Source of the DNA: an uncultured Actinomycetes bacterium
Lineage (GTDB): Bacteria > Actinomycetota > UBA4738 > HRBIN12
DNA length: 64,000 bases
Direction: 5' to 3'
NCBI GenBank assembly: GCA_963734685.1
Contig: CAVTIC010000006.1
Location: 211,320-275,319, forward strand
The notes under the pieces were generated by a model, which was not told where the DNA came from, did no database searches, and worked only from the letters and a program-made list of their open reading frames with translations. A program made the position numbers and the translations under genes. Shown one piece after another: positions 25,572 through 61,834 of the stretch (positions are counted from its first letter, which is position 1; every line of letters begins with the position of its first letter).

Positions 25572-25919
25572 AACGATGTGGCAGGCTGCACCTCAACAAG
25601 GGGTCTCGGGCGCACCCGCGACTCCTGGTGGTGTACGGCTAAGGAGCTTTCTCTCCAAATAGGCCGAATGATGTACGTCTAGGGGTTGCGCAAACGTCAC
25701 ACCTGGGCGTACGGTCCGCCCATGCGCGCATCCGCCATCCAGGGGGGGCCGAATGACCGAGTGGGTTCGCACCTCGGCGTAGGGCTCCTGCCCTCCCTCA
25801 ATCGTGGCTTCCTCCCGAACGACATGCGCCGTCTCGTCCGACACGCCCGCAGCAGGTTGGAGCCCGTCTCGCCAATGCCCAGGGGTCCCCCTGGACCGAC
25901 TCGTGGAGGTCGCAGAACC

Positions 25920-28900
25920 ATGATGCGGTGGATCATCGGATCGAGCATCAAGTTCCGTCGCTTGGTGATCGCTGTCGCCGTCGGGTGCCTCGTCTACGGC
26001 GTCCTGCAGCTCGACAACGCCCGGACGGACATCCTGCCGGAGTTCCAGCGGCCGACCGTCGAGGTGCAGACCGAGGCTCTCGGGCTCTCCGCGGAGGAGG
26101 TCGAGGAGCTGATCACGGTGCCCCTCGAGCAGGACCTGCTCGTGGGGATCGCGTTCCTCGACGAGATCGAGTCGGTCTCGCTGCCCGGGCTCTCGTCGGT
26201 GGTCATGACGTTCGAGCCGGGAACGGACGTGCTCGACGCGCGCCAGGTCGTCGCCGAGCGCCTGACCCAGGCGGTCGCGGCCGCCGGGCTGCCGCAGGTC
26301 GCGAAGCCGCCACAGATGATCCAGCCGCTCTCCTCCACCAGCCGCGTCGCGATGGTGAAGCTGTCCTCCGACGAGCTGACGCCGATCGAGATGTCGCATC
26401 CTGTCCCGCTGGGTGATCACTCCGCGCCTGCTCGGCGTCGAGGGCGTCGCCAACGTCTCGACCTGGGGATTCCGTGACCGGCAGCTCCAGGTGCTGGTCG
26501 ACCCGCAGCGGCTCAACGACGCGGGCGTCACGCTCAACCAGGTGATCCAGACCACCGGGAACGCGCTCGAGGTGTCCCCGCTCACGTTCCTCGAGGCCTC
26601 CTCGCCCGGCACCGGCGGCTTCATCGACACGTTGAACCAGCGGCTCCACATCTTCCACGAGCAGGCGATCTCGACGCCCGCAGAGCTCGGCCCAGGTGCC
26701 GATCGAGGATCCGCAGGGCGACGCGGCGACGTCCGGTGGTTCGGCGCCAACGCTGGGCGACGTCACCGACGTCGTCGAGGATCATCAGCCGCTGATCGGC
26801 GACGCGCTCTGCACCGGCGGCGACTGCCTGCTGCTCGTGGTCGAGAAGTTCCCGGACGCCAACACGCCGGAGGTGGCCGACGGGATCGACGCGGCGCTCG
26901 ACGAGCTCGCGCCCGGACTCCCCGGGCTGGCAGATGGACACCTCGATCTACCGCCCGGCCGAGTTCATCGACACGTCCTTCGACAACCTCGGGCGCGCGG
27001 CCCTGATCGGCTGCGATCCTGCTGATCCTCGTGCTGGGAGCGTTCGCCTTCGAGTGGCGCAGCGCCCTGGTCGGCACGGTGGCGATCGCGATGTCGCTCG
27101 CCGCCGCCTGGCTGGTCCTCTACTTCACGGACACCACCGTGAACACGATGATCCTGGCGGGCCTGGTCATGGCGCTCGTCGCGCTGATCGACGACGCGGT
27201 CATCGACGTCGGCAACGTGGCTGCAGCGCGTCCGACAGCATCGCTGCGCAGGGTGACGGTACCCCCGCCTGGCAGGTCGTGATCGAGGCGACGCTCGAGA
27301 TGCGCAGCGCGATCCTGTTCGCGACGCTGATCGTCGGGCGGTCCTCCTGCCCGCGTTCTTCATGGAGGGGGAGGCGGGCGCTTTCCTGCCGGCGATCGCT
27401 ACCGCGTACCTGCTGGCGATCGTGGCTTCGATCGTGGTCGCCGTGACCGTCACGCCCGCGCTCGGCATGATGCTCCTGGGCAACACGACCCGAGAGCGTC
27501 GCGAGTCGCCGGTGGCGCGCTGGCTGCGTCGGCGCTACGACGGGCTCGGCCTCGCGGATCGTGCCCAAGCCCGGCCCGGCGTTCGCCGTCTTCGGCCTCT
27601 TCGCCGTCGCCGGCCTGCGTGGCGTTGCCGTTCCTCGACCAGTCGATGCGCCCCGTCCTCAAGGAGCGCGACGTGGTGGTGAAGCTGGATGCCCCGCCCG
27701 GCACGTCGCTCCAGCGCATGGACGAGATCACGGCGCAGGCCGTCGAGGAGCTGCGATCGCTGCCCGGGGTCGACGACGTGGGCGCGCACGTCGGCCGCGC
27801 CGTGCAGTCGGACCAGATCGTCAACGTGAACTCCGCCGAGGTGTGGGTCAGCATCGACCCCTCCGCCGACTACGACGACACGATCGCCGCGATCGAGTCG
27901 GTCGGCCGGCGGGCTCCCCGACGTCTCGAGACGACGTGCTGACCTACTCCGAGCAGCGGGTCACCGACGTCCTGGGCAGAGGGGACGACGAGATCGTCGT
28001 GCGGCTCTACGGCCAGGACCAGCAGATCCTCGAGACCAAGGCCGAGGAGGTGCGCGCAGCGATCGCGGGATCGACGGGCTCGAGAACGCTGCAGGTCGAG
28101 CTTCCGCCGACGAGCCGACGATCGAGGTGCAGCCGGACATCGCCCGCGCCGAGCAGTACGGTCTCGCGCCGGGCGACGTGCGCCGCGCCGCGACGACGCT
28201 CCTCTCGGGCCTCGTCGTCGGGAACCTGTTCGAGGAACAGAAGGTGTTCGACGTCGCGGTGTGGGGAACCGAGGAGATCCGCCAGAGCGAAACCGACGTC
28301 GAGAGCCTGCTGATCGACACGCCGGACGGGGGACTCGTGCGCCCTCGGCGACGTCGCCGACGTGCGCATCGTGCCGAACGCGGCGGCGATCCGGCACGAG
28401 TCGGTCGAGTCGTACGTCGACGTCGGCGGCCGAACGTCTCCGGCCGGGACGTCGGCGCCGTCGCGGGCGACGTCGAGCAGGCGCTCGAGCAGGTCACGTT
28501 CCCGCTCGAGCACCACGCGCAGGTCCTCGGGGGCTTCGAGGAGGACGCGGCGGCGCGCTCGCGCGTGATCGCCGTCGCGGTGGCGGCGCTGATCGTGATC
28601 TTCCTGCTGCTCCAGGCCGCGTTCGCGAGCTGGCGACTCGCGGCGCTCGCCTTCGTCGGTCCTGCCGATGGCGCTCGCCGGCGGCGTGGTGGCGGCGCTG
28701 ATCGCGGGCGGCGACATCACGCTCGGCTCCGTGGCCGGGTTCGTCGCCGTGCTCGCGCTCGCGGCCCGTAGCGTCGTCGTCCTCATCCGGCACTACCAGC
28801 AGCTGCAGCGCGAGGGCGAGGCGTTCGGCGCCGACCTCGTGATCCGAGGGACCAGGGAACGGCTCGTGCCGATCCTGACGTCCGCGCTGGGGTCGGCCGT

Positions 28901-29131
28901 CGTCTTCATCCCGTTCGCCTGAGCAGCGGTGCCGGCCGGGTTCGAGATCGTCGGGCCGATGGCCATCGTGATCCTGGGCGGACTGGTCACGACGACGCTG
29001 CTGACCTCGTCGTGGTCCCCGCGATCTACCTGCGGTTCGGCTTCGTCGCCGAACCGGACACGTCGGCCGAGGATCTGTTCGTCAAGGTTCCCGACGATCG
29101 ACACGGTCCGGAGGGTAGGTGGGACCGATGA
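25920..29131 (+). pseudogene. CusA/CzcA-like efflux RND transporter permease, copy 1, broken by at least 10 frame changes
   Basis: N-terminus MMRWIIGSSIKFRRLVIAVAVG...PEFQRPTVEVQTEALGLSAEEVEELITVPLEQ is HME-RND-like. The protein continues across track ORFs 26413, 26696, 26934, 27031, 27362, 27619, 27561, 28127, 28668 and 28929, each in a different frame. Several junctions sit at C/G homopolymers (for example gtcccgctgg ~26410, ggcccagg ~26700). The stop overlaps the next ATG. Confidence 0.8.
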
Positions 29132-29561
29132 AGCGCAGCCTCCTTGCGATCGCCGTGATCCCCGTCGCCGCCTTGATCCTGACGGCCTGCGGCGGAACGG
29201 TGTCGGACGAGTACGAGATCGAAGAGCAGCCCTACACCCTGGAGCCGATCGAGGGTGAGGACGTGCTCCGCGTCACCCTGACCGAATCGGCAGTGGAGCA
29301 CATCGGCATCGAGACGGTGCCGGTCGAGACAGCGCGGCTCGAGGTTGGTCGTGCCCTACGACGCGGTGTACATCGACTCCCACGGTGGGCTTCTGGGTCT
29401 ACACGAACCCCGAGCCGCTCGTGTACGTTCGAGCCCCGATCGACATCGTCCGCGAGACGTCGACCGAGGCGTTCCTCGCCGACGGGCCGCCCGCCGGAAC
29501 CCAGGTCGTGACGGTCGGGGCCCCGGAGCTGTACGGAACCGAGACGGAGTTCGGTACGTAG
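29128..29561 (+). pseudogene. Small efflux-associated lipoprotein (periplasmic adaptor-like), frameshifted
   Basis: MKRSLLAIAVIPVAALILTAC lipobox; the body is spread over three frames (..ARLEV / VVPYDAVYIDSHGG / WVYTNPEPLVYVRAPIDIVRETSTEAFLADGPPAGTQVVTVGAPELYGTETEFGT*). Confidence 0.5.
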
Positions 29562-29589
29562 GCGTGATCACGGAAGGAAGGAACGCGCG

Positions 29590-32500
29590 ATGCTTCGCTG
29601 GATCGTCGGGTCGAGCCTCAAGTTCCGATACCTCGTGGTCGCGCTCGCCGCCGCGCTGATGTTCTTCGGCGTGCAGCAGCTCCGCCACACCGCGGTCGAC
29701 GTCTTCCCCGAGTTCGCGCCGCCGAAGGTCGAGGTCCAGACGCCGTCCCTGGGGCTGTCCGCGAACCAGGTCGAGTCGCTGGTCACGATCCCGCTCGAGC
29801 AGACGCTCAACGGGGTCCCCGGCCTCGACGAGATCCGCTCGAAGTCGGTGGAGTCGCTGTCGTCGATCGAGATGATCTTCAAGCCCGGCACCGATCTGCT
29901 CACCGCTCGGCAGCACGTCGCGGAGCGCATCGCCCAGATCTCGCCGCAGCTCCCGACCTGGGCGAGCCCTCCCTTCATGATCCAGCCCCTGTCCGCGACG
30001 AGCCGCGTCATGAAGATCGGGCTCACGACGACCGACCCAGACTTGGACCTGATCGACCTGTCGATGACGACCTACTGGAAGATCAGGACCCGTCTGATGC
30101 GGGTGCCGGGCGTCGCGAACGTGCCGATCTGGGGCGAGCGGATCGAGATGCCCACGATCCAGATCGATCCGAAGCGGCTCCGCGAGCACAACGTCACGGT
30201 CGACGCCGTCTCGACGGCCGTGGCGGACGCCCTGGACGCGGGGCTGCTCCAGTACTCCGACGGCAACTACATCGGGCGCGGCGGCTTCATCGACACCGCC
30301 GACCAACCGCTACCAGGTCCGGCACGTCCTGCCGATCGTGGAGGCCGCGGACCTGGCCGAGATCCCGGTCGAGTCGGCCGACGGCAAGAAGCTCGAGCAT
30401 CGAGGACGTGGCGAACCTCGAGCGAGGCACCTGGCCGCTGGTGGGTGACGCCGTCATCAACGACGGCCAGGGCCTGATGCTCATCGTCGAGAAGCTGCCC
30501 TGGGCGAACACCCTGGACGTGACGCGCGGGGTCGAGGCGGCGCTGGAGGAGCTCAAGCCCGGCCTGTCCGGCATCGCGATCGACGCGACGATCTTCCGCC
30601 CGGCGACCTTCATCGAGGAGTCGATCAGCAACCTCTCCAAGGCCATCTGGTTCGGGGCGATCCTGATGGTCCTGATGCTCTGCCTGTTCCTCTACAGCTG
30701 GCGCACCGCCGTGATCAGCGTGGTGGCGATCCCGCTGTCGCTGATCGCGGCCGGTCTCGTCCTGCACTGGCGCGGGGCGACGATCAACACGATGATCCTG
30801 GCCGGCATGGTGATCGCCCTCGGCGACATCGTCGACGACGCGATCATCGACATCGAGAACGTGGTCCGACGTCTGCGGCAGCGTCGCCGGCGAGGGCGGC
30901 GGCGCGTCGACCGCCAGGATCATCCTCGACGCCTCGCTCGAGGTTCGAAGCGCGATCGTGTACGCGACGCTGATCGAGATCGTCGCCGTCGCGCCGATCT
31001 TCATGCTCGAGGGACTGTCCGGGTCGTTCTTCCGGCCGCTCGCCACGTCGTACGCGCTCGCGTTGCTCGCGTCGATGGTCGTCGCGCTGACGGTGACCCC
31101 GGCGATGAGCCTGATCTTCTTCAGGAAGCCGTCCTCCCTGCAGCACCGCGAGTCGCCGGTCGTCCCCGCCCTCCAGCGCGGGTACCACTTCGTCCTCGAG
31201 AGGATCGTCCGACGGCCTCGTCGCGCGTACGCGGCGGTCGGCCTCGCGACGGTGATGGGCGTCGCGGCCCTGCCGCTGCTCGGCCAATCGCTCCTGCCCT
31301 CCTTCAAGGAGCGCGACTTCCTGATGCACTGGCTGACGGTGCCCGGCACCGGGCCAGCCGGAGATGTTCCGGATCTCCGCTCGGGCCAACCACGAGCTGC
31401 TGGAGATCCCCGGGGTCAGGAACGCCGGGTCGCACATCGGGCAGGCGCTGCTGATGGACGAGGTCGTCGGGATCGACTTCGGCGAGAACTGGATCAGCGT
31501 CGACCCGTCCGTCGACTACGACGAGACCCTCGCGAAGATCCAGGAGGTCGTCGACGGCTACCCGGGCCTGTACCGCGACGTGCTGACCTACCTGAAGGAG
31601 CGGATCCGGGAGGTCCTGACGGGCTCGAGCGAGGCCATCACGATCCGGATCTACGGGCAGGACCTGGCTCAGCTGCAGGAGACGGCCGACGAGATCAACG
31701 AGATCGTCGGGAGCATCCCCGGCGTGACGAGGACCACGTCGAGTCCCTCAAGGACATCCCCCAGGTCAGCGTCGAGGTCGATCTCGGCGCAGCGCAGCGC
31801 TACGGGCTCAAGCCCGGCGACGTCCGCCGGGCCGCCGCCCGGCTGCTCGCAGGTGAGGAGGCCGGCGACATCTTCCGGGAGGCAAGGCCTACGACATCCA
31901 GGTCTGGAGCACGCCCGAGACCCGTGACACCTACAGCGACATCGGGAACCTGCTGATCGACACGCCCAGCGGCAAGTACGTCCACCTGAAGGACGTGGCG
32001 ACGGTGACGATCGAGCCCGTTCCCAACGTCATCTATCACGACAACCTGTTCAGGAGCCTCGACGTCGGCGCCAACATCGACGGCAGCCGGGACCTCGGCT
32101 CGATCGTGGGCGAGCTCGAGAATCGCCTCGAGACTACGACTGGCCGGCCGAGTACCACGCCGAGTTCCTCGGTGAGTACACGGAGCGGCGAGAGGCCGCG
32201 AACCGGTTGAACGTCGGCGCGATCGCGGCGGCCATCGGGATCTTCCTGCTGCTGCAGGCGTCGTTCGGCAGCTGGCGGCTCGCCACGCTCTCGTTCCTGA
32301 CCCTGCCGATCGCGCTGATCGGTGGCGTGATCGCGGCGTACCTCACCGGTGGAGTCATCTCGCTCGGATCGCTCGTCGGGTTCTTCACGGTGCTGGGGAT
32401 CGTCGCGCGGAACGGGATCATGCTGATCAGCCACTACCAGCATCTCGAGCGGTTCGAGGGCGTTCCCTTCGGCCCGGAGCTGGTCCTGCAGGGAGCCCGT

Positions 32501-32740
32501 GAGCGGGTCGTACCGATCATGATGACGGTCCTGACGACCGGGCTCGCCCTCGTGCCGCTGCTCATCGCGGGGGAGATCCCCGGCCAGGAGATCGAGTATC
32601 CGATGGCCTGGGTCATCCTCGGCGGGCTCATCACGGCGACGTTGCTGAACCTGTTCGTCGTGCCATCGTTGTACCTGCGGTTCGCGAAGAAGGGTGGCCA
32701 GGCCGGAACGCCGATGCCTGCGGCTCCGGTGCCCGCGTAA
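29590..32740 (+). pseudogene. CusA/CzcA-like efflux RND transporter permease, copy 2 (about 50% identical to copy 1 over the first 160 aa), broken by at least 6 frame changes
   Basis: [40 protein letters not shown]... through GGFIDTADQ, then continues in ORFs 30408, 30958, 31364, other unlisted frames, and 32207 (C-terminus ...[37 protein letters not shown]). Confidence 0.8.
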
Positions 32741-39725: not shown

Positions 39726-39790
39726 GTCCGCACCTTCGCGGCACCGTGGAGATGGGTGACCGAGACCGCTTCGGCGGGTGGTCGACGAGG

Positions 39791-40063
39791 TCAATGTCCG
39801 CCAGGTGCCACGAGGCGCGCGCGGATCACGCTGTCCATCTCATCCTGCGACCAGACCCTCGCTATCGCCTCTCTGATGATGGCATGGCGCAACTCCTCGT
39901 CGGCATCAAGGTCCGCCTGTTCCGCCTCCGTCCGTGTCCCCGGCTGGTCGTGAGTCTCGATCCGCTCACGACCTGCGCGCCGTATCGCAGCGAAATCATC
40001 GCAGGGATCGACGGCGTGCCCGTCCAGGAACCACGTGTCCACCCGGGGCTCGTAATGCAGCAT
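39791..40063 (-). CDS. Hypothetical small protein (90 aa)
   Basis: Strong RBS GGAGAAGGAG immediately upstream on the minus strand. No recognizable family. Confidence 0.4.
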   Translation of the reverse strand: MLHYEPRVDTWFLDGHAVDPCDDFAAIRRAGRERIETHDQPGTRTEAEQADLDADEELRHAIIREAIARVWSQDEMDSVIRARLVAPGGH

Positions 40064-40181
40064 CTCCTTCTCCCCTCCCCTCAGATCTCGGGGCTGAACC
40101 GTCGGCTTCCTCTACCGCAAGGGTAGGCCGTGACCCGCCTGGTCGGGGGGCCGGACGAACCGCACGGAGGGAGCCGGTCGG

Positions 40182-40340
40182 TGCGAGAGGGGGGGTCGAA
40201 CCACACGCCCTTTCGGGCACCGGGGCCTAAAGGCGGTGCCACCACGCACGGATCCCGTCGTCACGGGTCGCCTGGTGCCCGCTCGTGTCGTCTCGTGACC
40301 GTGAGGGTCACTCCCTTGTGAGCAAAGCGTGAGCAAGAGG
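40182..40340 (-). repeat. Repeat unit A: degenerate tRNA-Leu 3'-half copy plus ~100-nt shared flank ending in an AGCGTGAGCA motif
   Basis: About 75-80% identical to unit B (43117..43275). The first ~55 nt align to the 3' half of the intact tRNA-Leu at 45142..45225. Confidence 0.6.
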
Positions 40341-40639
40341 ATCGGTGGACATGTAAAGGATTCGTCTCTCCTGGACCACCATCTGTGCGGTGGACGATGT
40401 GGACCTGACCGTGTGCAGGTGCGCGGTTTCGCCGACGACGAGATCGACAGCGCTGTCTTCTACCCGCAGGATGACGGCTTCCTCGTCGACCGAGAAACAT
40501 TGGTACGCCACTACGCCTTCCACTGACACCAGGACGGCTCGGCAGGCCGTTGACACCGAGACCGGGCCGCACTCTTCGGGGGCGGTGGGCGCGTCCGCCC
40601 GAGAGAGATGACGTTGCCGGCGTGGCGTCGTGGTCTGTC

Positions 40640-42088
40640 TCAGGTGTGGTTCTGGCGCTGGACAGCTTCGGCGAGTGTGCGGATGCCCCCGCGGATCTGC
40701 TGCTCGCCGACGTTGCCGAAGCCGAGCACGAGAGCGGGCGGGCGCGGGTCCGGTTCAGCTTCCGTGTCTGCGGCCACGAACCGGTAGCGGTCGAGTCCGT
40801 TGACCCCGACACCCATGGTCGCCGCGGTCGCCACGACAGCGCGCTCGGATGTCCCGTCGGGGAGGCGCAGCAGGGCGTGACAGCCGGCCGCCAGCCCCTG
40901 CAACCGACCCTGCCCGAAAGCGAGTTCGGCCTCGGCTGCCAGCACGTCCCGGCGTGCGCGGTAGACCTCCCGCACGCGTCGCAAGTGACGGTCGAAACGG
41001 CCCGTCTCCATGAGCAGCGCCAGCGCTTCCTGGTCCAGGCCGGGAGCGCCGCGACTGCTGAGCCGCTTCTCCTCGACGATCCCCTCCACGAACCGTGCTG
41101 GCGCGAGCACCCAGCCCAGCCGGATCGCCGGCGCGAGCGTCTTGCTGACCGATCCCAGGGCGATCACGCGGTCCGGGTTGAGGCCCTGAAGTGAACCGAC
41201 CGGCTGACGGTCGTACCGGAAATCGGCGTCGTAATCGTCCTCGAGGATCACCCCGTCGACCTCGTCGGCCCAGGCAACCAGGTCGCGTCGCCGCGACGGG
41301 CCGAGCGCCACACCGGTGGGGCATTGGTGGGCAGGTGTTAACAGCACCGCTCGTGCTCCGGTTTCGCGCAGGCGATCCACGTCGAGGCCATGGTCGTCGA
41401 CGGGAACCGGCACCGCGTCCAGGCCGGCGCGGCGGGCGATGACGTCGTGCTCGCGGGGGCCGGGGTCCTCCAGCGCGATGCGCCCGATGCCGTGCTGTGC
41501 CAGCGTCGCCAGGGCGAAAGCCAGTCCCTGCCGGAAGCCAGAAACGACGATGGCGTCCTCGGCGACCGCGCAGCCCGACCGAACGCGACGGTGGTAGGCG
41601 GTGACAACCTCACGCAGATGCCTCGAACCGGCCGGGTCCTCGTCACCCAACTCGGCGGTCGGAAGGGTCCGCGTCGCCTCCGACACCGCCCAACTCCAGG
41701 CCGTCAACGGCACCGAGCCGAGATCGGGGATGCCGTACTCGAAGTCGGCCACGGCCGGCCGGGACGACAAGGGCGAGGCAAGGACGGCGCCGGGCCCTGG
41801 CCGGGCCGGCCCGCTGGCCGGCATCGCGGCCACCCGCGTCCCGGAGCCGACCGCCGACTCGACGTACCCTTCGGCCAGCAACTGCTCGTAGACATCGACC
41901 ACCGTGCCGCGTGAGACGCCGAGCAGCTCGGCCAGGCGTCGAGTCGACGGCAAGCGTTCCCCGGCACCGAGCCGTCGATCGCGGATCGCCGCCCGCAACT
42001 GGTCCTGGATCTGGAGCCCGAGCTGTCCGGCGTCGCGGTCCAGCGCCACCAGCAGGTCGGGGCCACCGCGCGCCCAGTCCACCGCCAT
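40640..42088 (-). CDS. MocR/GntR-family transcriptional regulator with PLP-dependent aminotransferase domain
   Basis: N-terminal GntR wHTH (STRRLAELLGVSRGTVVDVYEQLLAEGYV) and fold-type I aminotransferase body (SVSKTLAPAIRLGW). Confidence 0.85.
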   Translation of the reverse strand: MAVDWARGGPDLLVALDRDAGQLGLQIQDQLRAAIRDRRLGAGERLPSTRRLAELLGVSRGTVVDVYEQLLAEGYVESAVGSGTRVAAMPASGPARPGPGAVLASPLSSRPAVADFEYGIPDLGSVPLTAWSWAVSEATRTLPTAELGDEDPAGSRHLREVVTAYHRRVRSGCAVAEDAIVVSGFRQGLAFALATLAQHGIGRIALEDPGPREHDVIARRAGLDAVPVPVDDHGLDVDRLRETGARAVLLTPAHQCPTGVALGPSRRRDLVAWADEVDGVILEDDYDADFRYDRQPVGSLQGLNPDRVIALGSVSKTLAPAIRLGWVLAPARFVEGIVEEKRLSSRGAPGLDQEALALLMETGRFDRHLRRVREVYRARRDVLAAEAELAFGQGRLQGLAAGCHALLRLPDGTSERAVVATAATMGVGVNGLDRYRFVAADTEAEPDPRPPALVLGFGNVGEQQIRGGIRTLAEAVQRQNHT

Positions 42089-42219
42089 GCCACCAGCATG
42101 CCAAATGGTTCACTCAGCGGGACAGCCAGTGGCCCTTCGCATCGGACCGCATCAAGCCTCAGACTCGATGTCATGACCCCCGAGGCAGGCAGTTGCACAC
42201 CACGAGTGGGAGGTGCCCC

Positions 42220-43056
42220 ATGTTGACGCAGGTCGCCGACGGTGTGATGGTCCACCAGAGCGAGCTACTCGAGAACAACGCCGTCGTCGTACAAGGCCAG
42301 GCCGGCGTGTTGCTCATCGACCCCGGGATACAAGGCTCCGAGATGGCCTGCCTCGCGAACGACCTTCGCGAGTTGGGCCAGTCCGTCGTGGCGGGCTTCT
42401 CGACGCATCCCGATTGGGATCACGTGCTCTGGCACGCCGAGCTCGGTGAAGCGCCGCGTTACGGCACCGCCCGCTGCGCAGCGTCCATGCGAGATCTGCT
42501 GTCGAACGCGGACTGGCAGGCCCGCGTCGCCGAGGGGTTGCCGCCAGAGATCGCCGAGGAGGTACCGCTGGACCTGTTCGGCCTCATCACCGGCCTGCCC
42601 GCCGGAACCGCGCAGATCCCTTGGGATGGCCCGAGGGTCCGGATCATCGAGCATCCGGCGCATGCACCGGGCCATGCGGCGTTGTTCATCGAAGAACGCG
42701 GGGTTCTCGTCGCCGGTGACATGCTCTCTGATGTCTTGATCCCGATGCTCGACGACTTCGATGGCTCCAACGACCCGGTCGAGGACTACCTCATCGGGCT
42801 GCAGCTGCTGGAGGGGGTGGCGGACGACGTTGATGTCCTCATCCCGGGTCACGGGTCCGTCGGCGGAGCCGATCAGCTACGCGCACGGATCGAACAGGAC
42901 CGCGCGTACGTGCTCGCCCTGCGTGACGGCGGTGGTCCCGACGACCCGCGGATCGGCCCATCGGCCAAGCCCGGCTGGGAGTGGGTAAGCGATGTGCACA
43001 ACGGGCAAGCCCAGCGCCTCGCCGAAAGGAACGAACGCGACGCGACGCCCGGCTAG
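42220..43056 (+). CDS. MBL-fold metallo-hydrolase
   Basis: STHPDWDH metal motif. Divergent from the MocR regulator. GGGAGG RBS. The track start 41911 is an extension. Confidence 0.75.
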   Translation: MLTQVADGVMVHQSELLENNAVVVQGQAGVLLIDPGIQGSEMACLANDLRELGQSVVAGFSTHPDWDHVLWHAELGEAPRYGTARCAASMRDLLSNADWQARVAEGLPPEIAEEVPLDLFGLITGLPAGTAQIPWDGPRVRIIEHPAHAPGHAALFIEERGVLVAGDMLSDVLIPMLDDFDGSNDPVEDYLIGLQLLEGVADDVDVLIPGHGSVGGADQLRARIEQDRAYVLALRDGGGPDDPRIGPSAKPGWEWVSDVHNGQAQRLAERNERDATPG

Positions 43057-43116
43057 CGATCCGCTTGCGACACAAGACGACCCTGCCAAATTCTTGACGC
43101 ACGACACTCTAGGGGG

Positions 43117-43275
43117 TGCGAGAGGGGAGATTCGAACTCCCACGCCCTTTCGGGCACCGGGACCTAAAGGCGGTGCCGCCACGCACGGATCCCGCTTCCA
43201 CGAGTCGTCTGGTGCCCCCTTGTGTCGTCTCGTGCCCGTCGGTGTCGAACCCTTGTGAGCGAAGCGTGAGCAGAG
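43117..43275 (-). repeat. Repeat unit B: 52-nt exact copy of the tRNA-Leu 3' end (anticodon loop to discriminator) plus shared flank with AGCGTGAGCA motif
   Basis: 43117..43168 is identical to 45142..45193 and then diverges, so it is a tRNA fragment rather than a gene. Confidence 0.65.
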
Positions 43276-43393
43276 ACTTCATCCGCCGGCATCGATTTCC
43301 GCGCAGTCTCGCCGGGTTCCCCGGAGCCTGGTGACCGTACGGGCAGGTCGTTCATCCCTTCGACCCCGCCGCGCGCCTCCCCTGCAGCCTGCG

Positions 43394-44329
43394 TCATCGA
43401 GGGCGTTTGACTGAGAGGGGAGCGCCTTCCTTCATGTTGATCTCGGGGACCAACGGTTCGACCGGCTTGCTGGAGTTGATGTCGGGTACGAATCCAGCAG
43501 CCGCGACGAGCTTGAAGATGTTGACCTCGTCGGGATCCTCACCAGCTTCCATCTCGGTGGATGCCATGACCTGCAGGCTGTCGGGATCGAACCACCAGAT
43601 CTTGAGCCGGCGCTCGGTCTCGATCTCGACGCTGATGGCAGCGCGGCCAGCAGGGTCAATCACATCGTGTTGGACCGATGCACCTTCGAGACCCGCGAGC
43701 ACCTGAGCGAGCGCCGCCCGCAGTTCGGGGCTCACGTTGTCGTCTTGAAGTAGTTCGCCGATCGATCGAACGACACCCGCGATGATCGGTGCCTCTGCTC
43801 CAAGCGTCCATTCCCGGTGCGCTTCGGGAGAGGCGCCTCCCGGTTCCGCCCGCTCGACCAGCTGGTCGTAGAGAACCTCGGGATCTGCGACGAGGTAGGT
43901 CACATCGCCCGCATCGGTGATGTACTCACCGGCTCCGAAGACCTCGTCATGGCCCCGCTGGTCGTGTCGACGACCCGAGGCATCGAGTCCGTACCAACGT
44001 TGCTGGTCATAGGCGACGCGTTTGGCCGAGCCGTCGTTGGCCAGCGTCACCCAGGCGCTGCGCTCGTAGGCGAAGGCATCGGGGGGGAAGGCGAGTACCG
44101 CTGAGGGCGGCGCCAGGCGATCGCCTGCGGCATCCTCGGGAGGACGGCCCAGGCTGAGGCTGTAGAGCCCGACACCGATCATCGCAAGGATTCCCAGCCC
44201 CAAGGCTCCTGCGCCCGAGCGTCGGCGCAGCTCGCGTCGGTCTCTCTTCCGCTCCAGGGCATCGAGGCCGAAGGCTGGATCCGGCACTGCGTTCACCGCA
44301 CCCCTCAGACGTTCCCGAAGTCCGTTCAT
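43394..44329 (-). CDS. Membrane-anchored hypothetical protein, probable anti-sigma factor partner
   Basis: Translationally coupled to the ECF sigma gene (ATGA overlap). Single TM ALGLGILAMIGVGLYSL after a cytoplasmic N-terminus. Confidence 0.5.
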   Translation of the reverse strand: MNGLRERLRGAVNAVPDPAFGLDALERKRDRRELRRRSGAGALGLGILAMIGVGLYSLSLGRPPEDAAGDRLAPPSAVLAFPPDAFAYERSAWVTLANDGSAKRVAYDQQRWYGLDASGRRHDQRGHDEVFGAGEYITDAGDVTYLVADPEVLYDQLVERAEPGGASPEAHREWTLGAEAPIIAGVVRSIGELLQDDNVSPELRAALAQVLAGLEGASVQHDVIDPAGRAAISVEIETERRLKIWWFDPDSLQVMASTEMEAGEDPDEVNIFKLVAAAGFVPDINSSKPVEPLVPEINMKEGAPLSVKRPR

Positions 44330-44856
44330 CGTTCGACCCCCATCCGCTCTCGGAGCTTCTCGTGAGCTCTCGACCTCAGGACCCGGACCGTCGAGGCGCG
44401 GATGCCGAGGGCGCTGCCCGCCTGCTGACTCGTCCAGTCAAGGAGATCCGTCAAGATCACCACCGCTCGTTCGCGTGGCGAGAGATGGCGCATCGCTCTT
44501 GTCACTGCGTCGGCCTCGTCGACGAGTGACAGGTCGTCCCTCCCGAGTTCGGAGTGCAGGGCCCGTCGCAGGGCGGTCTGCACTCGCCGTCGTCGGCTGC
44601 GCCAGACGTTCATCGCGATTCGGAACGCGTAGGCCACCGGATCGTCGATGGCTTCGAGCCGGTCCCATCGTTGCCACATGCGGACGAACGTCTCCTGGGC
44701 GATGTCTTCGGCTTCGTGTCGATCGTGGGTCACGAGCAACATGGCGGCGAAGAGCTCGCGCCTATGCGTCTCGAAGAACTCCTCGAAGGACTGCGAGGCC
44801 ATCACCTCAACGGAATCGATCACTTCGGACACTCGAGGCATGGACGCCGGAGCCAT
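44326..44856 (-). CDS. ECF-subfamily sigma-70 factor
   Basis: Region 2 EDIAQETFVRMW and region 4 LSPRERAVVILTDLLDWTSQQAGSALGIRASTVRV. Confidence 0.85.
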   Translation of the reverse strand: MAPASMPRVSEVIDSVEVMASQSFEEFFETHRRELFAAMLLVTHDRHEAEDIAQETFVRMWQRWDRLEAIDDPVAYAFRIAMNVWRSRRRRVQTALRRALHSELGRDDLSLVDEADAVTRAMRHLSPRERAVVILTDLLDWTSQQAGSALGIRASTVRVLRSRAHEKLRERMGVER

Positions 44857-45141
44857 GCGAAGTGCTTACAGGAATCTTCGTGGCGTTGCTTGCCGACTGA
44901 ATGTGGCGAACGACGAGCTCCGTCCCGTGCCGGCGCCGACCGGGTGTCGGTTCTCCTCGCGGGACTCCGGACGCCGTCCGCCCGTCCTCGGGCGACACTT
45001 GGGCGCCTCAATGCGCTCGGGACGGGCTCCTAGCATCGAACCCGGAACCGGCTGCCGCGACTTCTGTCAGCAAGCGTGAGCAAGTCGGGATTCTCGACGC
45101 CGTGGCTCGAACACCTCAGAAGAGGAATCCGCAGCTCACAG

Positions 45142-45225
45142 TGCGAGAGGGGAGATTCGAACTCCCACGCCCTTTCGGGCACCGGGACCTAAACCCGGCG
45201 CGTCTGCCAGTTCCGCCACTCCCGC
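45142..45225 (-). tRNA. tRNA-Leu (anticodon UAG), 84 nt, long variable arm, no encoded CCA
   Basis: Reverse complement GCGGGAG-TG-GCGG-AACTGGCAGA-CGC-G-CCGGG-TTTAGGT-CCCGG-TGCCCGAAAGGGCG-T-GGGAG-TTCGAAT-CTCCC-CTCTCGC-A folds as a class II tRNA (one G.U in the acceptor stem). Confidence 0.85.
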
Positions 45226-55066: not shown

Positions 55067-55212
55067 GCCGAGATGCTATCCAATGGAACATGAGAGGAAG
55101 CTGAAGACGATGGCCGGTGCGCTCGGGGACTTGAACCCCGAATCTGCGCCCAAGCAACACCCCTCGGCGACGATGGAGGCGCGTCGAGGGGCGGCCTGCG
55201 TCATGATGAGGC

Positions 55213-58200
55213 GTGCCCGCCCTCAGTGACCTGCCGACGGGAACCGTCACGTTCCTGTTCACCGACATCGAGGGCAGCACGCGGCTCGTCCAGAACCTGG
55301 GTGACGCGTACCCGCCGCTGCTCGAGCAGCATCACGACATCGTGCGGTCGGCGGTCGAGGTGAACGACGGCCTGGTCGTCAGCACGGAGGGCGACTCGTT
55401 CTTCGCCGTCTTCCCGGCCGCACCCGCGGCCCTGCGCGCCGCGGTTGAGGCGCAGCTCGCGCTCGAGCGGCATCCGTGGCCCGACGACGCACGGATCCGC
55501 GTGCGCATGGGGCTCCACACGTGCGAGGGACGGATCGGCGCAGGGTCCTACGTGGGGGTCGAGGTGCATCGCGGCGCGAGGATCGGCGCGGCCGGTCACG
55601 GCGGTCAGGTGCTCGTCTCGGCCAGCGCCGCGCAGCTCGCCGAACGCGCCCTGCCCCCCGGGGTGTCCCTGACCGACCTCGGAGAGCATCGGCTCAAGGA
55701 CCTGCTGCAGCCGGAGCGCATCTTCCAGGTGGAGCATCCGGCGCTCGAAGCCGAGTTCCCGCCCCTCAAGACCCTCACCGACCGCCCGAACAACCTGCCC
55801 ACGCAGACCTCCGAGCTCGTGGGGCGGGATCGGGAGCTCCGCGAGATCCGGGACCTGCTCGCCGACCCCGCCGTGCGCCTGCTGACGTTGATCGGGCCGG
55901 GGGGCATCGGCAAGACCAGGCTGGCGCTGCAGGTCGGCGCGGAGCATGCGGACCTCTCGCCCGACGGCGTCTATTTCGTCGATCTCTCACCGGTGACCGA
56001 CGCCGATGCGGCGTTCGACGCCGTCGCGCGGGCGGTGGGTGCGTCCGGCAGCGGCGGCCCGCTCGACCTCCTGCGCGAGCACCTTGCGTCGCGGCGCGTG
56101 CTCCTGGTGCTCGACAACCTGGAGCAGGTGATGGACGCAGCGAGCGGCATCGCCGAGCTGCTGCGATCGAGCCCGGGTCTTCGGGTCCTCGTGACGAGCC
56201 GGGAGGCGCTGCGGATCCGCGGCGAGCGCCTCTTCGCCGTGCCGCCGCTGACGCTTCCCGACGACGTCGCGTCCGCGGACGCCGTCGAGCGTTCGGCGGC
56301 GGGACGACTCTTCGTCGAGCGAGCGCGTGACGCCCGTCCGGGGTTCGAGCTCACCGATGACGACGCCGAGGACGTGGCCGAGATCTGCGTTCGGCTCGAC
56401 GGGCTCCCCCTCGCGATCGAGCTGGCGGCCGCCCGGATCGCGCTGTTCTCCCCGGGCGAGCTGCGGGACCGGCTGCGCGAGCACGCCGGCGTCCTCGGCG
56501 GCGGCACCCGCGACCTCCCGGAGCGGCAGCAGACCTTGCGGAGCACGATCGAGTGGAGCGAGCGCCTCCTCGACGAGGACGAGCGCTCGACGTTCCGGCT
56601 GTTCTCGGTCTTCGCGTCCGCTCGCATCGAGGCGGTGGAGGCGGTCGCCGCACGGTTGGACGGCGGCGCCGGAACGGACGTGCTCCCGCGACTGGTGTCG
56701 CTCGTCGACAAGAGCCTCGTCCGCAGCCTCGACGAGGACGGTCACCGCCGGCTCGCGATGCTCGAGACGATCCGCGACTACGCCGCCGAGCGGCTCGACG
56801 AGCTGTCGGAGCAGCGCGACGCCGCTCGGCGCGCGCACGCGGAGCACTTCGCCGACGTCGCGCACGAGCGGCGGGAGCGCCTCACCGGCCGGGAGCGGGC
56901 GGAGGTCCTCGCCGAGCTGGAAGCCGACCTCGGCAACCTGCGTGCCGCGTGGCGCTACTGGGTGGAGGCCGGCGACCTCGGGCGACTCGACGCGATGCTC
57001 GACGCGCTGTGGACGTTGCACGACGACCGCGGCTGGTACCACGGGGCGATCTCGCTCTCGAACGACCTGCTCGCGGTGCTCTCGGCAGCGCCGGCGACGG
57101 CTGAGCGCACCGCCCAGGAGATCACGGTGCGGACGAGCCTGGCCCGCGGGCTCATGGCGATCCGCGGGTACACGCAGGAGGTCGAGGACATGTTCGCGGC
57201 CGCGCTCGCCCAGCTCGAGGAGACCGGAGAGCCCTCGGACGCGGTGCCGCTGTTGCGGAGCCTCGCCGCGTTCTACCTGTATCGCGCTGACTTCGACAAG
57301 GGCAACAAGATCGGGCGCCGGCTCCTGGAACTCGCCGAACGACAGCAGGACCCCGCGCTCCAGGCGGAGGGGCATCTGCGCGTCGGCACGAACCTCGTAT
57401 CGCTTGGCCATGTCGACGAGGGTCTCGAGCACCTCGATCGTGCGATCGGATTGTTCGACCCGCAGCGGCAGGCCTCGGGGCGGCTGCGCCTGGGCCCGAG
57501 CCCCGGGATCGTGCCCTACACGACGTCGGCGTTCGTGCTGTGGTCGATCGGGCATCCTGCGCGGGCGGTCGAACGTGGTGCGGGTGCCTTGCGCCTCGCG
57601 GCGGAGCTGCGTCACCCGTACAGTGCGGCGTACGCGCTCTTCCACGTGGCCTTCCTCGACATGTGGCGCAGGGACTGGTCGAGCGTGCACGAGCGGGCGT
57701 CGCAGGTTCGGGACATCGCCGAGGAGCACGACTACCAGGTGTGGAGGGCGCTCGCACTCATCTTCCTCGGCGTGTCGGAAGCGGCGCTGGGCCGCCCGGC
57801 CGAGGGGATGGCGCTCAGCGATCAGGGGTTCGCTCGTTACCAGGACCTCACGACGCCGCCGGTCTTCTGGCCGCTGCTGCTGTCGGTGCGCGCACGGGGA
57901 TTCGGGATGGCCAGCCGGCCCGAGGAAGGTCTCGAACCGGTCGACCAGGCGATCGAGCTGATGCAGGGCCGCGATAACGTCCTGTTTCCCCAGCTGCCGT
58001 TGGTCAAGGGCGACCTGCTCGCTGCCACGTCGGGTGCGGCCGACGCTCGAGGCTCGTTCCGCGACGCCTTCGACGCGGCGGACGCAGCCGGGGCCCGCAT
58101 GTGGCAGCTCCGCGCCGCCACCCGGCTCGCGGAGCTGCGTTCGGCCTCGGGTGAGCCGGCGGGCGAGGAGCGCGCCGCGCTCCGGGCGGTCTACGAGACG

Positions 58201-58269
58201 TTCGCCGAAGAGTCCGACACGGCGGACCTCGCCGACGCGCGCATCGCCCTCGGGGACAGCGGGCCCTGA
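55213..58269 (+). CDS. Class III adenylyl/guanylyl cyclase domain fused to an NB-ARC/AAA ATPase (STAND) and TPR repeats; no C-terminal LuxR HTH
   Basis: N-terminal CHD (VTFLFTDIEGSTRL...GLHTCEG...GVEVHRGARIGAAGHGGQVLVS), P-loop GPGGIGKTRLA, and long helical TPR-like C-terminus. 1018 aa without stops. Confidence 0.85.
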   Translation: MPALSDLPTGTVTFLFTDIEGSTRLVQNLGDAYPPLLEQHHDIVRSAVEVNDGLVVSTEGDSFFAVFPAAPAALRAAVEAQLALERHPWPDDARIRVRMGLHTCEGRIGAGSYVGVEVHRGARIGAAGHGGQVLVSASAAQLAERALPPGVSLTDLGEHRLKDLLQPERIFQVEHPALEAEFPPLKTLTDRPNNLPTQTSELVGRDRELREIRDLLADPAVRLLTLIGPGGIGKTRLALQVGAEHADLSPDGVYFVDLSPVTDADAAFDAVARAVGASGSGGPLDLLREHLASRRVLLVLDNLEQVMDAASGIAELLRSSPGLRVLVTSREALRIRGERLFAVPPLTLPDDVASADAVERSAAGRLFVERARDARPGFELTDDDAEDVAEICVRLDGLPLAIELAAARIALFSPGELRDRLREHAGVLGGGTRDLPERQQTLRSTIEWSERLLDEDERSTFRLFSVFASARIEAVEAVAARLDGGAGTDVLPRLVSLVDKSLVRSLDEDGHRRLAMLETIRDYAAERLDELSEQRDAARRAHAEHFADVAHERRERLTGRERAEVLAELEADLGNLRAAWRYWVEAGDLGRLDAMLDALWTLHDDRGWYHGAISLSNDLLAVLSAAPATAERTAQEITVRTSLARGLMAIRGYTQEVEDMFAAALAQLEETGEPSDAVPLLRSLAAFYLYRADFDKGNKIGRRLLELAERQQDPALQAEGHLRVGTNLVSLGHVDEGLEHLDRAIGLFDPQRQASGRLRLGPSPGIVPYTTSAFVLWSIGHPARAVERGAGALRLAAELRHPYSAAYALFHVAFLDMWRRDWSSVHERASQVRDIAEEHDYQVWRALALIFLGVSEAALGRPAEGMALSDQGFARYQDLTTPPVFWPLLLSVRARGFGMASRPEEGLEPVDQAIELMQGRDNVLFPQLPLVKGDLLAATSGAADARGSFRDAFDAADAAGARMWQLRAATRLAELRSASGEPAGEERAALRAVYETFAEESDTADLADARIALGDSGP

Positions 58270-58740
58270 CGGGGCAAGGAACGGGCCTGGCCGATCACCA
58301 GAACCTCCTACTCGACGAGGCTGCATCGCTCCTCGCGCGCCTATCGTCACCGCTGTCCAGCCCCACCACCGCGCGGTGGTGGTTCAGGGAGACGTTGACC
58401 ATCAGTGTGCCGATGGAGGGACAGGACAACCTCGCCCTGGAAGTCCCGTATCAGACCACTGGCTTTGCCCTCATCACTGTTGGCCGCGACGTGAACGATG
58501 ACCCCGACTTCGTCCTCTGGGAAATGGACGCCTTCCCGACCGACCGGCCGGGAGAGGCGATCGTGCAGGCGCTGCGCTGGCTGGAGGACGAGATACTCGA
58601 TACGACCGCTGCGGAAGAAGCGGCCGAGTCCGACGGCGAGTCGGAAGAGGACGCCTGATTGTCGGCGTAGGCGGCGGACGTTCTCACACCTCCGCGATTT
58701 TTCGACGGCGGCGGATGATCCTCGCCTGTTCTTGCGCCTC

Positions 58741-58768
58741 GTATACCAATCGTTTCTTTGGTATACGC
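58741..58768. promoter_or_regulatory. Perfect 10-bp inverted repeat CGTATACCAA-N8-TTGGTATACG just upstream of the serine recombinase start (coordinates approximate)
   Basis: Read directly; AT-rich relative to surroundings. Candidate recombinase binding/crossover site or operator. Confidence 0.4.
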
Positions 58769-58775
58769 TTCCGTC

Positions 58776-59417
58776 ATGCAGAGAGCCGTCGGATACGTGC
58801 GAGTGAGCACAGAGGAGCAGGGAACGTCCGGGGCTGGCCTGGAGGCGCAGCGTCGAGCCATCCGTCGCGAGGCGAAGCACCGAGGGTGGACGCTCATCGA
58901 CATCCACCAAGACGTCGCCTCGGGCAAGAGCATGAAGCGTCGCCCGGGTCTCGAATCGGCGATCGCTTCATTGTCGGCCGAGGAGGGCGACCTCCTGGTC
59001 GTATCCAAGCTCGACAGACTCTCCCGATCGGTCTCGGACTTCGCCCGATTCATGGAGGAGCGTGCACGGCTCAACGGGTGGGAACTCGTCGTCCTCGACC
59101 TCGGGGTGGATACATCCACGCCAACGGGCGAGATGTTCGCGAACATGATGGTGACCCTCGCCCAGTGGGAACGGAGGATCATCGGAGAACGGACGAGAGA
59201 TGGCCTTGCCGCGAAGCGTGCGGCTGGCGTCCGGCTCGGGCGGCCACCCGTGTTGCCGTCCTCCACGGTTCGTCGCATCCGAAGCCTCCGCTCGCGGGGG
59301 CACTCGTTCGCCGAGATCTCGCGTCGCCTGAACGCCGACGGGACGCCGACGGCTCACCCTCCGAGCCGATGGCATGCCGCTACGGTGAAGAAGGTCGTCG
59401 AGCGTCGCTCTAGGTGA
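58776..59417 (+). CDS. Serine recombinase (resolvase/invertase family)
   Basis: Canonical N-terminus MQRAVGYVRVSTEEQ (catalytic Ser) and C-terminal HTH (GHSFAEISRRLN). The track ORF starts 18 nt earlier at a non-ATG codon. Confidence 0.85.
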   Translation: MQRAVGYVRVSTEEQGTSGAGLEAQRRAIRREAKHRGWTLIDIHQDVASGKSMKRRPGLESAIASLSAEEGDLLVVSKLDRLSRSVSDFARFMEERARLNGWELVVLDLGVDTSTPTGEMFANMMVTLAQWERRIIGERTRDGLAAKRAAGVRLGRPPVLPSSTVRRIRSLRSRGHSFAEISRRLNADGTPTAHPPSRWHAATVKKVVERRSR

Positions 59418-59998
59418 GCGATGCCGTTCAGCGTTCGTCTCCGATGAAGGACACGGGCAGGGCCGGTGACTCCCCTTGGCCATCCGCTTTGTTCTCGACC
59501 TCTTTGACCTGCTGACCATCGAGTTCGGTTATGAGTTCGACCAGGCGCTGTGAGGCGTCGATGTTGAGGTTCTGTGTGCTCTGGGACCCATCCCAGTTCG
59601 ATCGAGGATCGCCTGTGCGGTCCGCACCCGGATGGCGTGATCAGGACCGACATCGACGACGAGACCGTGGCGATCGAGCTGCCGGAGGACCGCGTCCAGT
59701 GCTTCCTGGAGGCGTGTGACGGCCGAGGGCTGGAGTAGCTAGTAAGGGGTCCCCGCGCGTTTGGAAGTGGTTGCCTCCGAGTCTTGGTGGGTCGGCGTGG
59801 TTCACCGTGCGGACTTTCGTCATCCCTACCTTGTAGTTCGCCTGGGCTCCTATGCAGACTGACCTTCCCCAACACGCATCGCCCTGCCGCTCACGAGCCG
59901 AGACACCATCGGCGGGTGCCAGCACCCGCCGCCTCTCGGTAGCAGCTCCTCGGTTTCGAGACGGTCGGCGATCTGACGGTACGAGAGCCCTTGCTTCC

Positions 59999-60392: not shown

Positions 60393-60511
60393 GGCTCCAT
60401 CCTCTCGGTTCAGAGCGGCCAAACGCTCGATGTCTTTGTGCAAAGTGGGAAGCCGCCCCCAGCCTGTGGGACCATCGGGCAGAGACATCCCCGACAGGGA
60501 AGAAGGTACGT

Positions 60512-61784: not shown

Positions 61785-61834
61785 AGAACGATGCGGGCGG
61801 GAGGGTGCATCACTTTGCACAACACAGCAACGCT

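Follow-up and report, generated by a model that had tools for sequence, protein, structure and literature searches.

In a 64,000-nucleotide (nt) stretch of DNA from an uncultured Actinomycetes bacterium (lineage UBA4738; HRBIN12; contig CAVTIC010000006.1), referred to below in its entirety as the window, 5.4 kb of sequence lie between a histidine kinase gene and a tRNA-Leu(UAG) gene. We read this interval, with a probability of roughly 55%, as a tandem array of small, non-autonomous cassettes flanked by attachment (att) sites, two of them clear and a third perhaps decayed. The cassettes would have been integrated at the anticodon loop of the tRNA gene by a tyrosine integrase supplied in trans, and homologous recombination would have introduced mosaicism. 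The evidence for this reading comes from sequence comparison and consists of direct repeats of the 3' part of the tRNA, a conserved junction built around these repeats, and the turnover of cargo genes among relatives. The locus is a site-specific gene-swapping hotspot, at which the gene packets occupying the same spot differ between related genomes.

Partial copies of tRNA-Leu(UAG)

The intact tRNA-Leu(UAG) gene is the only tRNA detected by ARAGORN in the window, the overall GC content of which is 68.8%. Two partial copies of the gene lie on its 3' side, and all three copies share one orientation and thus constitute direct repeats (Table 1), as a first-pass annotation of this DNA had proposed. 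That annotation described the inner copy as a 52-nt exact match at 43117..43168. The match is indeed exact, although its length is 53 nt, the additional base lying just past the discriminator. The repeat therefore spans the tRNA from the first base of the anticodon loop to one base beyond the discriminator (45141-45193), and this 3' part of the gene is the att core referred to below. The outer, more diverged copy had been placed at 40182..40257; tRNA derivation holds for 40181-40231, while 40232-40257 belongs to a 104-nt repeat rather than to the tRNA.

A 44-nt sub-pattern of the core was found at only two sites in the window and gave no match in 100 shuffles. Rfam, searched at E<=1, returned the intact tRNA alone and recognized neither fragment as tRNA-like or as a member of another RNA family.

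A conserved junction at the internal boundaries

Related arrays, here given L-numbers, were recovered by pattern scans and by homologue look-ups with the extracytoplasmic function (ECF) sigma factor and metallo-beta-lactamase (MBL)-fold proteins encoded in the array, and the tRNA and its flanking blocks were mapped onto these contigs. We use P' for the block adjoining the tRNA 3' end and P for the one that borders a fragment at its anticodon-loop side. These names are positional, and the analogy with a phage-type attachment site (attP) is interpretive. Each tRNA fragment sits at the centre of an attP-shaped junction, and internal module boundaries share a conserved composite of about 265 nt in which P' and P, about 108 and 104 nt long, enclose the 53-nt tRNA core.

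In alignments of the junctions, conserved blocks alternate with variable, fast-drifting spacers, which is the pattern expected of protein-binding sites in att arms. Six blocks are distinguished in order: (i) the distal block of P', GGAACC..CTGCCGCGACTTCTGTGAGCAAGCGTGAGCAAGAC; (ii) the core-proximal block of P', AACGAAGATCCGCAGGTCAGAGGG; (iii) the 53-nt core; (iv) the core-proximal block of P, GGCGGTGCCRCCACGCACGG; (v) two GTCGTCTSGTGCC repeats, about 21 nt apart; and (vi) the distal block of P, TTGTGAGCRAAGCGTGAGCA. Every P arm terminates at ...GTGAGCA, and the sequence beyond is cargo-specific in all.

Within the window, the P' arm beside the tRNA displays the conserved distal block as GGAACC..CTGCCGCGACTTCTGTCAGCAAGCGTGAGCAAG, with the motif at 45066-45082, followed by a core-proximal block. 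Homologues of this arm occur in L001, L004/L006 (three copies), L005, L007 (three copies), L008, L009, L019 and L020. The P arm of the inner fragment carries GGCGGTGCCGCCACGCACGG beside the core, two GTCGTCTSGTGCC repeats and the closing motif GTGAGCGAAGCGTGAGCA at 43255-43272. The stretch of about 104 nt shared after both fragments, read on the plus strand, terminates exactly at a doubled motif, GTGAGCRAAGCGTGAGCA, so that the motif closes both P and P'. The P' arm associated with the inner fragment is degenerate and shortened, aligning weakly to other P' arms; L007 has a proper P' arm before its MBL gene at the place where the window has this remnant (43057-43115). The P'-like stretch ahead of the outer fragment also aligns weakly to P' arms, and we suggest tentatively that a third, decayed unit may lie to the left of that fragment; a relative whose kinase gene almost adjoins the tRNA is in keeping with an older insertion here.

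The motif AGCGTGAGCA has four matches in the window against 0.13 expected, a number reached by no shuffle. Three are on the plus strand (40326, 43263 and 45073), each within an arm, in keeping with the first-pass observation that such a motif recurs in direct orientation near the element ends. The fourth, on the minus strand at 63175-63184, lies 18 kb from the array between flanks without arm or core homology, and is probably a chance occurrence.

At the core edge of the junction, GGCACCGGG-ACCTAAA-GGCGGTGCC, 9-bp imperfect inverted repeats (7/9 positions) surround the 7-nt anticodon loop. This arrangement is kept in 6/7 complete junctions, and the corresponding edge of the intact tRNA, GGCACCGGG-ACCTAAA-CCCGGCGCG, likewise pairs at 7/9 positions. 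In the anticodon-loop class of the 2002 classification by Williams, the block of identity with the tRNA is said to extend from the anticodon loop as far as the 3' end, with imperfect inverted repeats flanking a 7-bp overlap. Here, too, identity begins with the first base of the anticodon loop, imperfect inverted repeats flank ACCTAAA, and crossover would be expected at GGCACCGGG-ACCTAAA-GGCGGTGCC. The classical layout of a tyrosine integrase substrate has core-type sites on either side of a 7-bp overlap and arm-type sites some 60-100 bp away; by analogy, the junction may work in the same manner.

The core fragments themselves carry T-arm variants with compensating changes in the stem, namely GGGAG/CTCCC and GGGGG/CCCCC, the latter being the native form of the tRNA in the relatives L002 and L003. 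Together, the compensating changes and the native occurrence of one variant indicate that functional tRNAs from more than one lineage gave rise to the fragments, and that cores have been exchanged with such tRNAs. The junction as a whole matched no Rfam family.

A further feature concerns the opening 27 nt of P on the tRNA strand (43169-43195 and equivalents), where GCGGGAT and GTGGCGG echo the 5' acceptor strand and the start of the D arm of the tRNA (GCGGGAG and GTGGCGG). The echo is not conserved in L005, and may be the relic of a whole tRNA copy in an ancestral attP.

Table 1. Features of the tRNA-Leu(UAG) locus, in window coordinates (aa, amino acids; GC3, GC content at third codon positions; ORF, open reading frame).
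Feature	Position	Strand	Remarks
Possible third, older unit	39726-40180		90-aa ORF at 39791-40063 (-), GC3 0.75; decayed P'-like stretch at ~40100-40180
Core fragment 2	40181-40231	-	~85-89% identity to tRNA; 2-nt deletion and mismatches in T arm
P arm, cassette 2	40232-40335		84-86% identity to 43169-43272; motif GTGAGCAAAGCGTGAGCA at 40318-40335
Cargo of cassette 2	40336-43056		MBL, MocR and low-GC stretch; Pfam
Lower-GC stretch, ~300 nt	40336-40639		No supported gene
MocR-type regulator (GntR/aminotransferase)	40640-42088	-	Pfam
MBL-fold hydrolase (Lactamase_B)	42220-43056	+	Pfam
P' arm, cassette 2, degenerate and shortened	43057-43115		Weak alignment to P' arms
Core fragment 1	43116-43168	-	53/53 nt match to 45141-45193
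P arm, cassette 1	43169-43272		Repeat of 40232-40335
Cargo of cassette 1	43273-45032	-	ECF sigma and overlapping putative membrane partner
Putative membrane partner, 311 aa	43394-44329	-	No Pfam hit; one hydrophobic segment by eye
ECF sigma factor	44326-44856	-	Pfam Sigma70_r2/r4
P' arm, cassette 1	45033-45140		108 nt, between islet 1 and tRNA; homologous P' arms in relatives
tRNA-Leu(UAG), intact	45141-45225	-	ARAGORN; Rfam RF00005 at 45142-45225, 51.9 bits

Cargo turnover among related contigs

The gene order shared across the wider clade runs MurI, MBL (RNase Z-like), RNase PH, Ham1, histidine kinase, a variable stretch, tRNA-Leu(UAG), YkuD and PGA_cap, and the left flank of the window from about 25 kb on belongs to this conserved core. 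The YkuD protein beside the tRNA finds its best matches in metagenomic sequences. An empty-like site, of the kind that the first-pass annotation had proposed to define from relatives lacking the insertions, is provided by the contig P0006, in which 176 nt separate the histidine kinase and YkuD genes according to its gene table, the sole source for this distance. Other relatives hold 3-8 kb of unrelated genes in the same place. With a variable stretch ranging from about 0 kb to 3-8 kb, the 3' side of the tRNA is an insertion hotspot.

Read outward from the tRNA, the window contains the ECF/partner unit, the MBL-MocR unit, a 90-aa ORF and the kinase gene. The corresponding order is a 67-aa protein with a PD40 propeller (345 aa), then MBL, in L001; ECF/partner, a 385-aa plus 178-aa pair and MBL in L007; and a PMP-repeat protein, ECF with a truncated partner, glyoxalase/pterin dehydratase and an MBL pseudogene in L006 (equivalent to the L004 contig). 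L008 carries ECF/partner, and L020, a sister of L006 with flanks at 96.6-97.8% identity, carries a 114-aa plus 223-aa pair followed by MBL-MocR. In both L005 and L019 a full junction lies between unrelated genes, with no tRNA in the stretch examined. L009, the YkuD of which is 70% identical, has a P' arm beside its tRNA and no detectable distal tRNA fragment.

The junction separates modules in L001, L004/L006, L005, L007 and L019, while P' alone flanks the tRNA in L008, L009 and L020. Eight independent contigs, drawn from separate assemblies (JGI, ENA long-read-style contigs and Logan), contain the conserved composite. Units bounded by it in the related contigs measure 0.8-2.7 kb and hold one or two cargo genes each, with at least seven distinct cargos, and most internal boundaries retain a complete P'-core-P with both arms extending to identical end points.

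Three comparisons illustrate the turnover. Firstly, between the window and L001, the unit nearest the tRNA (islet 1, cassette 1 in Table 1) has been replaced whole together with its arms: P is 78% and P' 60% identical, against 93.7% for the YkuD-side flank and 92.3% for the MBL side, and homology resumes at 45033. Secondly, the ECF cassette is 95% identical in L006, although the YkuD/PGA_cap flank of L006 is 74% identical to that of the window; across L006, L007 and L008, the ECF/partner cargo is 94-97% identical. Thirdly, the sisters L006 and L020 carry wholly different arrays, which points to recent gain and loss. The mobility proposed here is deduced from such comparisons of contigs. Small recombinase-free cargos, arms exchanged together with their cargo, the differences between L006 and L020, the ECF cassette in L006 and the T-arm variants of the core fragments fit a situation in which the small cassettes, rather than being the stumps of large islands, are themselves the units of exchange and rely on a recombinase encoded elsewhere.

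Genes of the LtrA family (low temperature requirement A) were noted behind tRNA-Leu in L009 (4413-5612), L010 (7454-8791) and L020 (6227-7426), three relatives which otherwise differ in the variable region.

Search for a recombinase and a parent element

Pfam scans of window ORFs, covering 37.9-49.5 kb, the right flank and, from the 10-34 kb interval, ten long ORFs, gave no integrase domain; the remaining ORFs of the left flank were judged by eye or by synteny with relatives. Pfam scans and precomputed gene tables of the related loci examined likewise revealed no integrase or integrase fragment, in line with the first-pass statement that no integrase remains. Neither Pfam at E<=1 nor PHROGs indicated a recombinase among the unannotated cargo (the 385-, 407-, 178- and 67-aa products, the small ORFs at 40.3-40.6 kb and the 90-aa ORF) or among the genes to the right of the L019 junction. 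No replication module was found in any unit.

Exact-pattern searches for the arms yielded, among the matches listed, one related contig of a metagenome-assembled genome (MAG) in the GTDB species genomes and one 2-kb contig in the JGI metagenomes, and a scan of IMG/VR with two patterns gave no match. When two junctions were compared by blastn with phage and plasmid collections, ordinary tRNA-Leu genes were the only matches, and the arms had no counterpart. No element combining these arms with an integrase was present among the matches listed from the exact-pattern genome, metagenome and viral scans, or in the phage and plasmid collections.

A model of cassette integration

In the model that we favour, each cassette comprises one or two cargo genes, bounded by P' (about 108 nt) on one side and by P (about 104 nt) on the other. 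At the meeting points of cassettes, the arms enclose a copy of the 3' part of the tRNA and so form the attP-like P'-core-P of about 265 nt. A heterobivalent tyrosine integrase, found in none of the sequences examined and possibly still active, would recombine the attP of the cassette with the tRNA gene. The 9-bp imperfect inverted repeats flanking a 7-bp overlap, which is the anticodon loop, are taken as the crossover site. The copy borne by the cassette would rebuild the 3' half of the tRNA, the former 3' half would be displaced outward, and successive insertions would let cassettes pile up on this side of the tRNA. Both the doubled GTGAGCA motif, at the outer ends of the arms, and the conserved core-adjacent blocks of 20-25 nt are candidate binding sites for the integrase or for accessory proteins. 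Homologous recombination between junction blocks would contribute additional shuffling and deletions.

Several observations weigh against this model. No integrase, excisionase, circular or excised form was seen, and the comparison sequences are all metagenomic contigs or MAGs. In the ECF cassette of L006, the half of P' that faces the cargo is retained, including a private TGTCAGC variant, but it is joined to another core-side half and another core variant; this core-side half resembles one that lies behind a different cassette in L007. Such a mosaic places the breakpoint at the motif and not at the core, and the simple form of the model then needs an extra recombination event. Some boundaries have no junction, namely that between MBL and glyoxalase in L004/L006 and that between the P' arm and MBL in L020, indicating that other processes remodel the island as well. 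Finally, a MocR-(EamA)-MBL module is widespread in Actinomycetota with no junction nearby. The L006 mosaic, the junction-less boundaries and the truncated arms together suggest that homologous recombination and plain deletions also act on the array.

Remodelling by deletion is apparent at L004 4693-4725 (L006 8684-8713), where a stump of 30-33 nt of tRNA core is fused to the middle of an anti-sigma-like gene at the equivalent of window position 44148; illegitimate deletions thus remodel arrays.

A bolder version of the model can be formulated, which we regard as possible but rather doubtful. The locus would be a working platform for cassette capture, analogous to an integron and differently built, in which one integrase encoded outside the examined stretches inserts and excises minimal cassettes of 1-3 kb. 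Each would contain only its cargo and an arm-type attP of about 265 bp mimicking the 3' half of tRNA-Leu(UAG), with the tRNA as a permanent insertion point and with cassettes circulating between species of Actinomycetota.

Alternative explanations

The arrangement of repeats is compatible with the successive arrival of ordinary integrase-carrying islands, or of actinomycete integrative and conjugative elements (ICEs), from which the integrase and mobility genes were later deleted to leave immobile remnants of the kind known as cis-mobilizable elements (CIMEs). This is the standard account of how CIMEs originate (PMC5704250), and deletions do occur at the locus, as seen in the fusion of a 30-nt tRNA fragment with a truncated anti-sigma-like gene in L004/L006, in partial P arms and in the degenerate P' at 43057-43115. 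We nevertheless consider such decay an unlikely origin of the array. The seven or more cargo units in eight contigs all fall within 0.8-2.7 kb without any remnant of a recombinase, and most keep both arms to the same ends, at which independent deletions would rarely have stopped exactly. The wholly different arrays of the sisters L006 and L020, moreover, imply recent gain and loss. The first-pass annotation had read the locus as two islets left by successive integrations into the tRNA. Its integration component is upheld by the direct repeats, their orientation, the motif-bearing arms and the hotspot. Its picture of two decayed islands, each having lost an integrase, sits poorly with units that are uniformly small and integrase-free, that mostly possess both arms and that, in the case of islet 1, are swapped whole.

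A second explanation dispenses with any active site-specific recombinase. After one or a few ancient integrations, RecA-dependent swapping between junction blocks following DNA uptake would account for the subsequent turnover. That no recombinase was found agrees with this, as does the mosaic structure of P' arms, in which the breakpoint, on comparing the ECF cassette of L006 with that of the window, falls within the best-conserved block; and blocks of 45-53 nt of high identity could serve as sites of crossover. As the sole process, we judge it quite unlikely. Outside the conserved blocks the arms differ by 20-40% and would make a poor substrate; the retention of blocks while spacers drift implies selection on binding sites; and the possession by each boundary of its own tRNA core, with differing T-arm variants, requires repeated site-specific events involving functional tRNAs.

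It may also be asked whether crossover takes place at the doubled GTGAGCA motif, with the cargo and one motif moving between static spacers made up of the tRNA fragments and the inner halves of the arms. Cargo divergence does start right past the P-arm motif at each junction, and the L006 ECF cargo retains the motif while the inner half of P' differs. The motif is, however, a direct and not an inverted repeat, unlike the core sites of recombinases, and new copies of the tRNA core would go unexplained. Core-less runs of alternating motif and cargo would be predicted, of which none was seen, and between the window and L001 the inner halves of the arms were exchanged too, within flanks that are 92-94% identical. 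We hold this scheme to be very improbable.

An assembly artefact, in which assemblers joined unrelated contigs at a short repeat, might be suspected given metagenomic comparison sequences, two of which (L007 and L008) start within the tRNA, but is scarcely credible when the longest exact repeat is just 53 nt, independent samples and assemblies show the same architecture, contigs of 317-573 kb among them, and three in-register copies occur on one contig within the window.

Comparison with known systems

We file the array as most resembling CIME accretion arrays and tycheposon islands, and as a member of no named family. CIMEs and accretion arrays, known from ICESt1-related elements and from pathogenicity islands of Streptomyces, consist of attL/attR-flanked units without genes for integration or transfer, which form a tandem stack at a target gene's 3' end and meet one another at attP-like junctions (PMC5704250). 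The present array shares the tandem stacking and the attP-like junctions, and its integrase-less cargo is flanked by P' and P arms and by core copies. It differs in that no parental ICE or integrative and mobilizable element is known and none was found in any array, in the tiny size of all units (0.8-2.7 kb), in the association of at least seven cargos with one arm family, and in turnover between strains that are about 97% identical.

The tycheposon islands of Prochlorococcus are similar in their anchoring at a tRNA, in the partial tRNAs that act as separators, in the outward displacement of older material and in environment-related cargo, but a tycheposon brings its own recombinase, of the tyrosine or serine type, and in most cases a replication module as well (bioRxiv 10.1101/2020.12.28.424599). 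Here, neither was found in any unit, and the conserved entity is the att junction. Among the customary signs of a tRNA-linked island, an intact tRNA with 3' repeats and presence/absence polymorphism were observed, and an internal integrase was not found in the window ORFs scanned or in the related loci.

The cassette chromosome islands of staphylococci and enterococci form tandem cassettes at the 3' end of rlmH between direct repeats, and ccr-less pseudo-staphylococcal cassette chromosome (pseudo-SCC) units among them, a functional analogue of the present cassettes, rely on a recombinase supplied in trans. They differ from the present units in their rlmH target, serine Ccr recombinases, short repeats lacking 100-nt arms and much larger size.

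Integrons invite comparison because of their small recombinase-less cassettes beside one insertion point and their strain-variable cargo. We rejected an integron array as an identification, since the array starts from a tRNA gene, next to which lies a YkuD gene, and has neither intI nor attI. An attC-like folded-DNA site was likewise rejected: folded as a single strand, the full junction is no more stable than its shuffles (z = -0.26, both strands) and forms no attC-like hairpin. Nor does the cargo resemble the mostly promoterless integron cassettes of one orientation: its genes use either strand, each unit holds one or two of them, and they have their own upstream regions of 100-300 nt. A further likeness is to the ssrA-targeted genomic islands of Dehalococcoides, which are site-specific and located at the 3' end of a small-RNA gene (PMC3146451).

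Islands linked to tRNA genes are usually attributed to large self-mobile elements that decay later. At this locus the conserved, recurring entity is the att junction, and the units observed are all minimal, recombinase-free and different between close relatives. Should a cognate integrase be found, the array would represent a compact system for the exchange of single adaptive genes in soil Actinomycetota, the cargo so far comprising sigma factors, surface proteins and detoxifying enzymes. A defined bacterial attachment site (attB) in a tRNA gene and an attP of about 265 bp might then also be usable as an integration tool. If none is found, the locus still offers a clean example of att-site relics structuring a hypervariable island.

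Cassette cargo in the window

The first-pass assignment of gene content, an ECF sigma factor with a coupled partner and a MocR regulator divergent from an MBL hydrolase, was borne out by Pfam and by the 4-nt overlap between the ECF sigma gene and the start of the 311-aa partner gene. GC3 values are 0.72-0.84 for the islet genes versus 0.85-0.91 for flanking genes. The MocR-MBL block is 95% identical in L020, and in L019 the two genes are 97.5% (MocR) and 93% (MBL) identical. A scan of the region for promoters and terminators detected no promoter-like sites and three terminator-like sites against 1.6 expected.

The MBL hydrolase is unusually conserved. Its best 120 matches have 84-100% protein identity, and all 8000 scored candidates reached E<=1e-30; proteins named from Nonomuraea, Streptosporangium, Actinopolymorpha and Nocardioidaceae are among the best matches. 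The MocR gene reaches only 67-69% DNA identity in contigs where the adjacent MBL gene is 94% identical. The usual form of the module is MocR-EamA-MBL, and both the window and L020 are without EamA.

Other segments of the window

In the left flank, consecutive ORFs at about 25686-32740 resemble, by eye, pieces of a transporter of the RND/ACR type, with two similar N-termini, one beginning MRWIIGSSIKFRRLV.., at a place where relatives have a single 1049-aa ACR_tran gene. The pieces may be frameshifted or pseudogenised copies, or may reflect sequencing errors.

On the other side of the tRNA, a 1018-aa protein combining adenylate/guanylate cyclase and STAND NTPase regions is encoded at 55213-58269 on the plus strand, and its gene forms a discrete block (55192-58271). 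Its counterparts in L006, L007 and L020 share 92-93% identity with it, and the homology stops within about 20 nt of the ends of the gene. In these three contigs it occupies the distal end of the tRNA-Leu array, while in the window it is located 10 kb off; related cyclase/HTH_77 genes are situated in the variable region of L013 and L019. The following 4.4 kb or so (58272-62700) have a GC content of 0.64-0.66 and no ORFs of high GC3, and no tRNA fragment or arm was found there. This may be another acquired segment, and its sole Pfam hit is to a DUF5122 beta-propeller protein at 60080-61465.

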